From positions 1 through 28,155 of IMG/VR virus record IMGVR_UViG_2547132281_000009: a stretch of DNA of 28,155 bases. The stretch is one strand, 5' to 3'. The stretch comes from a virus. Lineage: Duplodnaviria > Heunggongvirae > Uroviricota > Caudoviricetes. The position numbers and the translations under genes were made by a program. This document shows, piece after piece, positions 6,907 to 10,134 of the stretch. How positions within the stretch are numbered: the first letter of the stretch is position 1; each line of letters starts with the position of its first letter. Under the pieces are notes generated by a model. It was not told where the DNA came from, searched no databases, and saw only the letters and a program-made list of their open reading frames with translations.

Positions 6907-7239
6907 TCACCCCTCATACAGTGGTTTGCTGCCTAATTTCATTTTCTGGCGACCAACACAAGTCAACCCCATTTCACTACGTGGCTTGCTGTACCATGTG
7001 CGCTGATTCTTGCGCTCAATACGTTGCAGGTTGCTTTCAATCTGTTCGTGGTATTCAGCCAGCACTGTAAGGTCTATCGGATTCAGTGCGCTTTCTACTC
7101 GTGATTTCGGTTTGCGATTCAGCGAGAGAATAGGGCGGTTAACTGGTTTTGCGCTTACCCCAACCAACAGGGGATTTGCTGCTTTCCATTGAGCCTGTTT
7201 CTCTGCGCGACGTTCGCGGCGGCGTGTTTGTGCATCCAT
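6907..7239 (-). CDS. N: Antitermination protein N (lambda N-like, 110 aa)
   Basis: Translation begins MDAQTRRRERRAEKQAQWKAANPLLVGVSAKPVNRPILSLNRKPKSRVESALNPIDLTVLAEYH, matching lambda N including the arginine-rich motif; C-terminal ~25 aa differ. Confidence 0.9.
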   Translation of the reverse strand: MDAQTRRRERRAEKQAQWKAANPLLVGVSAKPVNRPILSLNRKPKSRVESALNPIDLTVLAEYHEQIESNLQRIERKNQRTWYSKPRSEMGLTCVGRQKMKLGSKPLYEG

Positions 7240-7482
7240 TTTATTCTCCTTTGAGCAACTTCATCGCTTCATCAATACGTGATTGTGTCCCTGCGTTTGG
7301 CTCCACTTCTTGAATTCGGCGAGCGTCCTCAAGGAGTTTCGCAATCATTTCTTTAAGCGCTTCGTTATTCATGGTCATTCTCCTGTCAGTTAGCTTTGAG
7401 TAACGCGCCGTGATGCTTATCTCCACGGTTGCTGTCTTGCAGCTGCATTTCGCGCTACTCAAAGCCTTCTGCTTTGAATGCT

Positions 7483-7513
7483 GCCCTTCTTCAGGGCTTA
7501 ATTTTTAAGAGCC
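7483..7513 (-). promoter_or_regulatory. nutL site (boxB hairpin GCCCTGAAGAAGGGC and boxA-like GCTCTTA)
   Basis: On the minus strand: ggctcttaaaaattaagccctgaagaagggc, the lambda nutL arrangement. Confidence 0.8.
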
Positions 7514-7553
7514 TCACCTTCAATGGTGGTTAGTGCGTCCTGCTGATGTGCTT

Positions 7554-7616
7554 AGTATCACCGCTAGTGGTATCTGTGTCAACACCGCCAGAGATAATTT
7601 ATCACCGCAGATGGTT
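7554..7616 (-). promoter_or_regulatory. pL promoter with OL1, OL2, OL3 operators
   Basis: Three 17-bp lambda-type operators (tatcaccgctagtggta 7556-7572, caacaccgccagagata 7580-7596, tatcaccgcagatggtt 7600-7616); minus-strand TTGACA (7577-7582), 17 bp, GATACT (7554-7559). Confidence 0.85.
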
Positions 7617-7770
7617 ATCTGTATGTTTTTTATATAGATTTATTTTTTTTGCAGGGGGGGCTTGGGAGGTGATCGAGAGATCTGAATTGCGATGTTTAGT
7701 GAGTTGTATCTATTAATTTTCAAATAAATACAATTGGTTATGTGTTATTGGTTGAAGGGGATCGTGAGGC

Positions 7771-7800
7771 AAAGAAAACCCGGCGCTGAGGCCGGGTTGT
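7771..7800 (-). terminator. Rho-independent terminator ending the cI operon (tImm-like)
   Basis: Stem cccggc/gccggg (7779-7796) with 6-nt loop, followed on the minus strand by TTTTCTTT; sequence matches the lambda terminator distal to rexB as I recall it. Confidence 0.75.
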
Positions 7801-7803
7801 ATA

Positions 7804-8676
7804 TTATTTAATTTCTTTTTCCGGTAAATACATTGTCATTTGAACAGGTTTCTTTCCATAGTGTTGAGCAACTCGACTTCTTAGCTCATGCATGGTGTCG
7901 CATGTTTTTGCGACCCCAATAACCTCCCAGCACCTTGATACAAGCTGCCTTACACCTAGGTTCTCGGTTAACTGTCTATGCCAGTGAACTCCTGCCGCAG
8001 GCTTGTTTTCTTTAAGATATTTAGCCACATCTTCGTCAAGAGTGTCATAAATTAACTCTATAACTAATTTCCCCCACCATTTGGGCCTTGATTGCAATGG
8101 GGTACTCCATCCTGTCAATCTACCAAATTCTTCCCATAACTCATCAGGAAATGTTTTTTCCCATGCTCTTAGTTCCTCAGCGATGAACGCCCTGAGTTTT
8201 ACTTGGAGAGCATCCTCTGCGCGCTCATACTGATACCCAGTAGCCTCATCAATTAGAGCATCTAACCCAGTCCTGGTTAAACCTGCTGTTAATACAGCAC
8301 ATTTAATTGCTATTTCTCGCTGTCTATCTGTCAATGGCGCGCCTTTGTATAGCGCCTGTACATAGCCGCGACAAATCAATTCAAATTGCTCAGTCTTAAG
8401 TCCTTGGCTCTTAAATTGGGTTCCTGGTATGGAAAACTCTATGAGTTCGGCCAGGACTAAGTCTTTGTCTATAAAGCCATTAAGTGAGCTAACGCCAATA
8501 AATTTAGCCAGGTCTCCTGACTCCGCATTGGCAATTGCTTTTACAGTTGCTCGCAAAGCTATAACACGATGTCCAGTGTCAAGCACATAGCAATCAATAC
8601 TTTCACCACCTAAGTCGATCTTCCCCTTCCATTTTGCGAATGGGGATGGTAATTGCTGTAAATCATCATGTTCCAT
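7804..8676 (-). CDS. Unknown-family protein (~290 aa) in the rexAB slot downstream of cI; candidate exclusion/defence gene
   Basis: Long ORF co-oriented with cI; start most likely the ATG at 8676 (AAGGG upstream, 32 nt after cI stop); the ORF-track start at 8772 would overlap the cI coding sequence by 65 bp; no transmembrane segment; no similarity to RexA/RexB. Confidence 0.6.
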   Translation of the reverse strand: MEHDDLQQLPSPFAKWKGKIDLGGESIDCYVLDTGHRVIALRATVKAIANAESGDLAKFIGVSSLNGFIDKDLVLAELIEFSIPGTQFKSQGLKTEQFELICRGYVQALYKGAPLTDRQREIAIKCAVLTAGLTRTGLDALIDEATGYQYERAEDALQVKLRAFIAEELRAWEKTFPDELWEEFGRLTGWSTPLQSRPKWWGKLVIELIYDTLDEDVAKYLKENKPAAGVHWHRQLTENLGVRQLVSRCWEVIGVAKTCDTMHELRSRVAQHYGKKPVQMTMYLPEKEIK

Positions 8677-8707
8677 TAATTGAATTACCCTTTTTTGCTG
8701 CGTTGAA

Positions 8708-9421
8708 TCATCCAAACGTCTCTTCAGGCCACTGGCTGGCGATAACTTTCCCCACAACGGAACAACTCTCATTGCATGGGATCATTGGGTACTGTGGGTT
8801 TAGTGGTTGTAAAAACACATGGCCGCTATCCCTGATCAGTTTCTTGAAGGTAAATTCATCACCACCAAGTCTGGCTATGCAGAAATCGCCTGGCTCAACA
8901 GCCTGCTCAGGGTCAACAAGAATTAACATCCCGTCAGGAAAGCTTGGCTTGGATCCTGTTGGCGCGGTCATGGAATTACCTTCAACCTCAAGCCAGAATG
9001 CAGAATCACTGGCTTTTTTGGTTGTGCTTATCCATCTCTCCGCATCACCTTTGGTAAAGGTTCTAAGCTCAGGCGAGAACATCCCGGCCTGAACATGAGA
9101 AAAAACAGGGTACTCATACTCACTTCTAAGTGACGGCTGCATACTAACCGCTTCATACATCTCGTAGATTTCTCTGGCGATTGAAGGGCTAAATTCTTCA
9201 ACGCTAACGTTGAGAATTTTTGCAAGCAATGCGGCGTTATAAGCATTTAATGCATTGATGCCATTAAATAAAGCACCAACGCCTGACTGCCCCATCCCCA
9301 TCTTGTCTGCGACAGATTCCTGGGATAAGCCAAGTTCATTTTTCTTTTTTTCATAAATAGCTTTAAGGCGACGTGCGTCCTCAAGCTGTTCTTGTGTTAA
9401 TGGTTTCTTTTTTGCGCTCAT
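8708..9421 (-). CDS. cI: CI repressor (lambda cI-like, 237 aa)
   Basis: Translation [70 protein letters not shown]... matches lambda CI nearly throughout, including the C-terminal LexA-like autocleavage domain. Confidence 0.95.
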
Positions 9422-9431
9422 ACGTTAAATC

Positions 9432-9497
9432 TATCACCGCAAGGGATAAATATCTAACACCGTGCGTGTTGACTATTTTACCTCTAGCGGTGATAAT
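9432..9497. promoter_or_regulatory. OR3-OR2-OR1 operators with divergent pRM and pR promoters
   Basis: tatcaccgcaagggata (9432-9448), taacaccgtgcgtgttg (9455-9471), tacctctagcggtgata (9479-9495); pR TTGACT (9469-9474), 17 bp, GATAAT (9492-9497); cro Shine-Dalgarno AGGAGG. Confidence 0.9.
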
Positions 9498-9521
9498 GGT
9501 TGCATGTACTAAGGAGGTTGT

Positions 9522-9722
9522 ATGGAACAACGCATAACTTTGAAAGATTATGCAATGCGCTTTGGGCAAACCAAGACAGCTAAAGATCTCGGTGTATATC
9601 AAAGCGCGATTAACAAGGCCATTCATGCAGGCCGGAATATTTTTTTAACTATAAACGCTGATGGAAGCGTTTATGCGGAAGAGGTAAAGCCCTTCCCGAG
9701 TAACAAAAAAACAACAGCATAA
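9522..9722 (+). CDS. cro: Cro repressor (lambda Cro-like, 66 aa)
   Basis: [38 protein letters not shown]... matches lambda Cro. Confidence 0.95.
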
Positions 9723-9729
9723 ATAACCA

Positions 9730-9761
9730 CGCTCTTACACATCCCAGCCCTGAAAAAGGGC
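9730..9761 (+). promoter_or_regulatory. nutR site (boxA CGCTCTTA, boxB GCCCTGAAAAAGGGC), followed by the tR1 region
   Basis: cgctcttacacatcccagccctgaaaaagggc immediately after the cro stop, as in lambda. Confidence 0.85.
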
Positions 9762-9840
9762 ATCAAATTAAACCACACCTATGGTGTATGCATTTATTTG
9801 CATACATTCAATCAATTGTTATCTAAGGAAATACTTACAT

Positions 9841-10134
9841 ATGGTTCGTGCAAACAAACGCAACGAGGCTCTACGAATCGAGAGTGCGTTGCTTAACAAA
9901 ATCGCAATGCTTGGAACTGAGAAGACAGCGGAAGCTGTGGGAGTTGATAAGTCGCAGATCAGCAGGTGGAAGAGGGACTGGATTCCAAAGTTCTCAATGC
10001 TGCTTGCTGTTCTTGAATGGGGTGTCGTTGACGACGACATGGCTCGATTGGCACGACAAGTTGCAGCGATTCTCACCAATAAAAAACGCCCGGCGGCAAC
10101 CGAGCGTTCTGAACAAATCCAGATGGAATTCTGA
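9841..10134 (+). CDS. cII: CII transcriptional activator (lambda CII-like, 97 aa)
   Basis: [73 protein letters not shown]... matches lambda CII; the ORF-track N-terminal extension from 9781 is upstream read-through. Confidence 0.95.

Follow-up and report, generated by a model that had tools for sequence, protein, structure and literature searches.

In the literature, P22-like phages count as one branch of the lambdoid group; their early regions are mosaic and freely exchanged, and their 'ant moron' is variable (PMC2629481, PMC8022706). The interval between cI and N is known as a mosaic hotspot of accessory and exclusion genes that are expressed from pRM, among them RexAB, 933W Stk, 434 Hex and BstA (PMC8585504, PMC3564112). 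Here we describe a lambda-type immunity module, immC, which is located within an element of the P22 type. It occupies positions 6907 to 10134 of the IMG/VR virus record IMGVR_UViG_2547132281_000009, a stretch of 28,155 nucleotides which was analysed over its full length and is referred to as the window. A previous sequence-only reading had placed at this site a lambda-type immunity region embedded in a P22-like structural and immI background. Judged by the sequence, the interval very likely represents the immC module of a defective P22-like Escherichia coli prophage, which would have been assembled by lambdoid exchange and would still confer immunity.

The immunity regions deposited as EF120455-EF120460, which derive from wild phages with lambda immunity specificity, served as comparison set. 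By their title, as cited in PMC8585504, these records belong to Degnan et al. 2007. As far as the deposited sequences of mEp234, CL707, HK244, HK544 and mEp332 (EF120455-EF120461) extend, their cI, cro and operators are near-lambda with the minor alleles that are also seen in the window. N and its flanks are alternative alleles, and genes unrelated to rexAB occupy its slot, namely hicAB in mEp234 and hypothetical ones in the rest of the set. Unlike the window, none of these deposited regions contains a gene for a P63C-domain protein or a 43-codon open reading frame (ORF) upstream of N. According to the same records, most of these phages possess a non-lambda cII, whereas the window encodes the cII of lambda, as do mEp332 and SfI. 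Those phages of the set for which a complete genome is available are HK97-like or lambda-like and not P22-like.

Lambda itself (NC_001416, 35037-38693) shares cI, cro, cII, OL, OR, nutL, nutR, tImm, pL, pR and pRE with the window at 90-99% nucleotide identity. The window differs from lambda in the absence of rexA/rexB and sieB, in a different 3' end of N and in an extra ORF upstream of N; moreover, the O/P replication genes have been replaced by a P22-type module, which has since been deleted. With P22 (NC_002371) the window has in common the order and identity of gp10 to gp16 as well as mnt, ant, the head-binding domain of the tailspike, abc2 and orf48. In contrast to P22, immC is of the lambda type and not c2/cro/c1, Arc shows 36% identity, the tail needle carries an Sf6-type knob, the receptor domain of the tailspike and the integrase are unrelated, and sieA is replaced by other genes.

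The apparently intact P22-like prophage of E. coli EC5931 (NZ_CP104592, locus L003, 2982822-3024811) contains the block of cI and the P63C gene with 99.2% identity. Like the window, it comprises cro, cII, the DUF2740 gene orf48 and P22-type late genes. Unlike the window, it possesses the full replication-nin-Q-lysis-head region and a lambda-type integrase and has no insertion sequence (IS) in an ant gene; its N is annotated as a pseudogene. At both ends of this 42 kb locus the late-gene products WP_346714477.1, WP_016262199.1 and WP_406681828.1 are encoded, with an integrase fragment in between, so that the P22-like prophage may be present in tandem or partly duplicated.

The lambda-like blocks and their control sites

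Similarity blocks were mapped by blastn of the window against lambda NC_001416 and P22. The module and its right border are composed of the following features:

6907-7239, minus strand: N antiterminator, 110 amino acids (Pfam N36, E = 1.6e-26)
7241-7372, minus strand: ORF of 43 amino acids between nutL and N, MNNEALKEMIAKLLEDARRIQEVEPNAGTQSRIDEAMKLLKGE
7482-7498, minus strand: boxB 17-mer of nutL, identical to lambda 35518-35534
7554-7582, minus strand: pL, with OL1 at 7556-7572, OL2 at 7580-7596 and OL3 at 7600-7616
7777-7798, minus strand: tImm terminator hairpin, identical to lambda
7804-8676, minus strand: P63C-domain gene (Pfam PF10546, E = 2.7e-22), 290 amino acids from the ATG at 8676
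8708-9421, minus strand: cI repressor, 237 amino acids, 4 substitutions compared with lambda
9432-9448, 9455-9471 and 9479-9495: OR3, OR2 and OR1, with pR at 9469-9497
9522-9722, plus strand: cro, 66 amino acids, K39N
9730-9762, plus strand: nutR, with boxA at 9730-9737 and the boxB 17-mer at 9746-9762, both identical to lambda
9841-10134, plus strand: cII, 97 amino acids, protein identical to lambda cII
9848-9863: pRE site TTGC-N6-TTGC
10083-10110, minus strand: oop-type terminator
10167-10313, plus strand: P22-type orf48 (DUF2740, Pfam), 85% amino acid identity to P22 orf48
10306-10426, plus strand: deletion scar, the start of a replication gene fused to the end of gene 4

Only 63% of 6907-10134 could be aligned to lambda. 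The block 8707-10174, which extends from cI over OR, cro and nutR to cII, corresponds to lambda 37226-38693 with 97.6% identity, 35 mismatches and no gaps (cI 97.3%, OR 99%, cro 97.0%, cro-cII spacer 98.3%, cII 98.3%). The block 7460-7798 with nutL, pL/OL and tImm corresponds to lambda 35496-35826 with 90.4% identity and small indels, and 6938-7250 is 93% identical to lambda N on the nucleotide level. OL2, OL3, OR2, OR3, both boxB 17-mers, boxA of nutR, the tImm hairpin and the cII site at pRE are exactly those of lambda. A promoter scan recovered pL (TTGACA-17-GATACT) and pR (TTGACT-17-GATAAT) with the lambda hexamers. The near identity to lambda which the sequence-only reading had stated for N, cI, cro, cII and their sites was borne out for the cI-cro-cII stretch and the operators, but does not hold for the interval as a whole. 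The comparison with lambda and P22 that had been proposed as a check gave a clear block map. The replacement of rexAB, an insertion of 126 bp and the different allele at the 3' end of N had been missed.

In the protein comparison, residues 1-64 of N including the arginine-rich motif are identical to lambda, and the C-terminal ~25 residues are those of the HK244/CL707/HK544 allele, unlike lambda. With the arginine-rich motif and both boxB elements, the sequences that define the N/nut specificity of lambda are present, with one change in boxA of nutL. Beside boxB it reads GGCTCTTA in place of CGCTCTTA, and the alignment of EC5931 contains the same first-base change. The 43-codon ORF is carried by the segment 7251-7376 (126 bp), which is absent from lambda. 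HK244, SfI and mEp332 align at 7200-7250 and at 7377-7560 with nothing in between, so that 7251-7376 was recognised as an insertion. The ORF matches phrog_32391 over its full length (E = 3e-34) and has a copy of the N ribosome-binding sequence AGGAGAAT on either side. Its stop codon is located 1 nucleotide ahead of the ATG of N.

Immunity specificity, probable assembly and possible remaining function

Compared with lambda, four of the 237 residues of CI are substituted (T3A, K71N, V132I and Q205H) and one of the 66 residues of Cro (K39N), while the recognition-helix regions of both proteins show no change. T3A and K71N also occur in CL707, mEp332 and mEp234, and K39N is also present in mEp234. 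OL1 carries a single C>T change, which is common to SfI, mEp332 and EC5931, and OR1 a single G>A change, which is common to CL707, mEp332, HK244, mEp234 and EC5931. Within its operator, each of the two changes falls on the corresponding base, position 8 of the non-consensus half-site. With the lambda DNA-recognition sequences in CI and Cro and six operators in lambda sequence and spacing, lambda immunity specificity appears to be the best reading of the module.

If the module works as its identity to lambda implies, CI would bind OL1-3 and OR1-3 and thereby switch off pL and pR, with its own synthesis being controlled from pRM. Cro, CII with pRE, and N with nutL and nutR would be the lambda parts for the lytic and the establishment pathways. 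The module probably arose through exchange of the usual lambdoid kind, with conserved boundaries as the points of joining. On its right side it would have been joined to a P22-type replication module in a short stretch behind cII which lambda and P22 have in common: similarity to lambda stops at 10174 and similarity to P22 begins at 10142, which places the junction in the shared stretch 10142-10174. The left side would be composed of an N gene with an HK244/CL707-type 3' end and the 43-codon ORF, inserted between duplicated ribosome-binding sites. In the accessory slot between cI and tImm, the P63C-domain gene would have taken the place of rexAB.

Within the deletion scar, the initial ~8 codons of a replication gene (MSNISNL) run straight into the final ~32 codons of gene 4 right before gene 10, with the fusion point at ~10326-10332. 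In comparison with the EC5931 locus (22873 to about 38905) ~16.1 kb are missing, and with them the genes for replication, nin, Q, lysis, terminase, portal, scaffold and coat. What is left is a remnant and not a complete P22-like phage. This deletion is not mentioned in the sequence-only reading and changes the biology, since in the absence of ~16 kb neither immC nor immI controls a viable phage here. Besides this deletion, which reaches from the replication genes to gene 4, the prophage has an interruption of ant. The module is no longer able to control a productive phage. The abilities it may have retained are immunity to superinfecting phages of lambda immunity, silencing of the left-over early-left genes and expression of the P63C gene.

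In a set of 50,697 deposited phage genomes, those with the lambda cassette were lambda-like, HK97-like or of the SfI type, and in none of these 50,697 genomes was lambda cI-cro-cII joined to a P22-type orf48. Among complete E. coli genomes, the block of cI and the P63C gene (98-99% identical) was detected in seven and the cro-cII-orf48 junction in about eight. The claim that two immunity systems of different ancestry are combined can be maintained insofar as an immC of lambda specificity, P22-type late genes and mnt, arc and ant of the immI type occur in one element; with its junction present in about eight genomes, however, this combination is not special. The record of 'Campylobacter phage CJLB-4' (MW057783.1, 48,361 bp), in which rex, cI, cII and N are annotated, matches the lambda immunity region in the same way as lambda and may be lambda sequence under another name.

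Three other explanations of the region were considered. The module could be merely lambda-like, with substitutions in operators, CI and Cro that gave rise to a new immunity specificity. The parallel change of OL1 and OR1 at the equivalent position, T3A in the N-terminal arm of CI and K39N in Cro are in line with this idea, but every one of the changes in OR1, OL1, CI (T3A/K71N) and Cro is found in deposited wild imm-lambda isolates, and the recognition-helix regions of CI and Cro are intact. As nearly all of these changes are alleles of wild imm-lambda phages, a shifted specificity is very unlikely, and a new specificity based on the parallel operator changes together with the change in the CI arm was rejected for the same alleles in the deposited phages. 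The juxtaposition of lambda-type and P22-type sequences might also be an assembly chimera of two prophages, as at no single place does a complete E. coli genome cover more than 47% of the window and the 42-mer at the deletion junction has no exact match in species-representative genomes. We consider this to be extremely improbable: the cI/P63C and cII/orf48 junctions recur independently in complete genomes, including an apparently intact P22-like prophage, att repeats at argW bound the element, and the replication gene and gene 4 can still be recognised by their ends in the deletion scar.

It is improbable, too, that the module is a silent relic with an inactive or unexpressed cI, in which the region decays along with the defective prophage. 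The loss of ~16 kb, the IS in ant and two private cI substitutions would fit such a state, and the window was also searched for kil and cIII as genes whose silencing could account for the retention of cI, with neither being found. However, all ORFs of the module are full length, 15 of the 19 nucleotide changes in cI and all five in cII are synonymous, and promoters, operators and terminator are intact. The reading we prefer, an immC module that still confers lambda immunity, has to be held against several points that weigh on the other side. V132I and Q205H in the C-terminal domain are private to the cI of the window. In nutL, a 1-nucleotide insertion between boxA and pL accompanies the first-base change of boxA. 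The 43-codon ORF may couple or alter the translation control of N. Furthermore, lambda immunity, expression of cI and co-transcription of the P63C gene are inferred, the role of the P63C protein is a guess from gene position, and the protein has no match among the PADLOC defence families.

The P63C gene in the rexAB slot

The replacement of rexAB is exact and extends from the cI stop codon to tImm, with 7799-8706 as the region of the P63C gene. Lambda 35826-37226 (rexA/rexB) has no similarity in the window, and the genes for RexAB exclusion are missing. The conserved reading of the P63C gene starts with the ATG at 8676, and alternative longer versions would begin with TTG at 8715 or ATG at 8772. 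This ATG is located 31 nucleotides past the cI stop codon, and the gene ends 5 nucleotides before tImm. As the gap of 31 nucleotides is without a terminator and tImm follows directly, transcription of the gene from pRM together with cI is expected in the lysogen.

The protein belongs to phrog_2384, which is listed in PHROG as of unknown function. It has 2702 homologues; the best 120 of these 2702 show 73-100% amino acid identity and derive from Enterobacterales, Pseudomonas, Burkholderiales, Xanthomonadales and several Alphaproteobacteria. Between prophages of Gamma-, Beta- and Alphaproteobacteria, with Enterobacterales, Pseudomonas, Delftia, Burkholderiaceae, Aureimonas, Sulfitobacter and Caulobacterales among the groups represented, amino acid identity amounts to 73-90%. 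Homologues are 290-295 amino acids long and contain long invariant motifs, e.g., DEATGYQYER and WEKTFPD. This conservation is unusually high for a phage accessory gene. No solved structure was matched by the sequence. An AlphaFold model reached a pLDDT of 71, with 80-92 for the N-terminal 150 residues, and the N-terminal domain of this model gave Foldseek matches to Bro-N and KilA proteins in BFVD. The model thereby indicates a putative DNA-binding fold of the Bro-N/KilA-N type, followed by the helical P63C domain, which is conserved and C-terminal.

The P63C gene shares its location with the genes for lambda RexAB, 933W Stk, 434 Hex and BTP1 BstA: it follows the repressor gene immediately, has the same orientation and precedes the terminator. 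There is no sequence similarity to RexA/B. BstA and the P63C protein both possess an N-terminal KilA-N/Bro-N-like fold, the likeness of the P63C protein being distant. A defence protein of the BstA type was not recognised in a comparison that was made with the KilA-N protein of IBS28 and not with BTP1 BstA itself; homology to this BstA-like slot protein, encoded by the imm-lambda prophage of E. coli IBS28, was rejected (hhalign probability 0.2%). The slot protein of CL707 was likewise rejected as a homologue and is unrelated.

Homologues of the P63C protein are encoded directly 3' of the repressor and on the same strand in the Salmonella P22-like phage SI8 (90% amino acid identity, different repressor) and in the Erwinia phage Midgardsormr38 (60%). 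In prophages of Pseudomonas chlororaphis and Delftia they are found two small genes downstream of an S24 repressor, and the homologue of Aureimonas is located at the prophage edge, away from any repressor. Five of the six contexts examined have the gene 3' of, and co-oriented with, CI-type repressors which are unrelated, and this suggests an action on incoming phage DNA, as for BstA. Judged by its position, the most likely role of the protein would be interference with superinfecting phages, as for other genes of the slot. That the family as a whole comprises uncharacterised, widespread phage-exclusion or defence proteins which are expressed in lysogens is a tentative proposal. The main alternative is a Hex-like role in the prophage's own switch. 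The protein would then have no function in exclusion or defence and would modulate repressor stability or induction, as 434 Hex does, or regulate transcription of host or phage genes. This, too, has some but not much probability: near-identical P63C proteins are encoded beside unrelated repressor alleles and one at a prophage edge, which argues against a partner that is specific for one repressor.

The P22-type background at argW

The immunity module is part of an element with the following further features:

1312-1331: distal att repeat, 18 of 20 bases identical to the 3' end of argW
10427-17374, plus strand: P22-type late genes gp10, gp26, gp14, gp7, gp20 and gp16
19140-19394, minus strand: mnt, Mnt 82% identical to P22
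19418-19681, minus strand: second Arc-like gene, co-oriented with mnt and upstream of it
19715-19921, plus strand: arc, Arc 36% identical to P22 Arc
20185-23558, plus strand: ant, split, with the 5' part at 20185-20485 and the 3' part to 23558
20486-22927: IS66-family element, 2442 bp, GTAAGCG... inverted repeats, genes for TnpA, TnpB and the DDE transposase TnpC
23659-25662, plus strand: tailspike, P22-type head-binding domain followed by an unrelated receptor-binding part
25754-26947, minus strand: IntS integrase (P4-type)
27073-27147, minus strand: argW, tRNA-Arg(CCT), adjoining the integrase gene
27223-28155: yfdC, right host flank

At its left end the window contains a host gene for a LacY-type transporter (1-870). 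The stretch from yfdC to argW is 99.9% identical to E. coli, which identifies this species as the host. A direct repeat of 20 nucleotides is found at 1312-1331 and 27073-27092, of which the second copy forms the 3' end of argW, and the prophage is located between the two copies. Several matches to prophages of E. coli also start at base 1312. The element occupies argW and represents a P22-like E. coli prophage which has become defective. Its integrase had been assigned to the P4 family, and this is confirmed by the architecture of Arm_DNA-bind_3, central and catalytic domains (Pfam PF13356, PF22022 and PF00589) and by the IntS annotation in E. coli, with 98% identity to genes annotated as intS in E. 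coli genomes. Its match to NCBIfam PRK09692 falls under the family cut-off, and BLASTP revealed no similarity to P22 Int. At least 80% of the intS-argW stretch is matched in 1861 of 5426 complete E. coli genomes.

The late genes follow the synteny of P22-like phages, with the Pfam families Phage_stabilise, Phage_tail_NK, DUF2824, P22_gp7 and Inj_translocase and with Head_binding in the tailspike. By BLASTP, the P22-type proteins of this region share 59-94% amino acid identity with P22. Identities amount to 92-94% for gp10, gp14 and gp7, to 85% for the N-terminal half of gp20 (residues 1-232) and to 74% over 146 residues for gp16, while the knob domain of the tail needle gp26 (11845-12693) is of the Sf6 type. 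In the tailspike, resemblance to P22 gp9 is confined to the head-binding domain (residues 1-153, 62%). As no more than the first ~150 residues are shared, the receptor specificity should differ from that of P22. The P22 type which had been claimed for the structural genes, mnt, arc, ant and the tailspike is confirmed for gp10, gp14, gp7 and Mnt and does not hold in this form for Arc and for the tailspike beyond its head-binding domain.

The region around sar and the start of ant is 78% identical to P22 over 97 nucleotides, and the immI control region is a variant of that of P22. An extra ORF of 67 amino acids (orf67, phrog_7150) is located between arc and ant, within 19418-20121. The disruption of ant, which had already been seen, is due to the insertion of an IS66-family element, with the 8-bp target CGACAAGG duplicated at 20478-20485 and 22928-22935. 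Three ORFs, terminal inverted repeats and the 8-bp duplication are in agreement with this family. As the ant halves rejoin in frame, the insertion looks recent and simple. Susskind and Botstein (1975, 1978) are reported to have found that P22 Ant can inactivate lambda CI; this is given no weight as evidence here.

The region between gene 16 and mnt (17375-19090), which harbors sieA in P22, contains three other genes on the minus strand. They encode a protein of 130 amino acids, a PIN-domain protein of 182 amino acids and, overlapping, a protein of 239 amino acids (phrog_5962, phrog_21691 and phrog_19868). By its appearance, the PIN gene forms with its partner a cargo pair of the toxin-antitoxin or defence type. 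None of the genes in 17375-19090 had a significant PADLOC match, the 130-amino-acid ORF giving a marginal one to DpdH (E = 0.004). The early-left arm is finely mosaic as well. Its ea8.5/ea22 stretch (2065-3069) is 98.7% identical to lambda, and a DUF7446 gene (6382-6624) lies exactly between two short lambda-like stretches, within 6225-6668, which are adjacent in lambda at ~34071. The gene to the left of N (6652-6903) is 98.8% identical to gene 01 of mEp234 (VT2-Sa p20-like) and replaces sieB.

Taken as a whole, the finding is ordinary lambdoid mosaicism in a decayed prophage. The lambda cassette of cI, cro and operators is passed on with hardly any change between lambdoid phages whose virions differ, and here it is found in a P22-like podovirus, a background seen in none of 50,697 deposited phage genomes. 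Accessory genes were already known to be exchanged at the slot between cI and tImm. For the strain, immunity to phages of lambda immunity is predicted even though its prophage is dead. The only real lead is the P63C gene, which represents a well-defined candidate for a prophage-encoded exclusion function.

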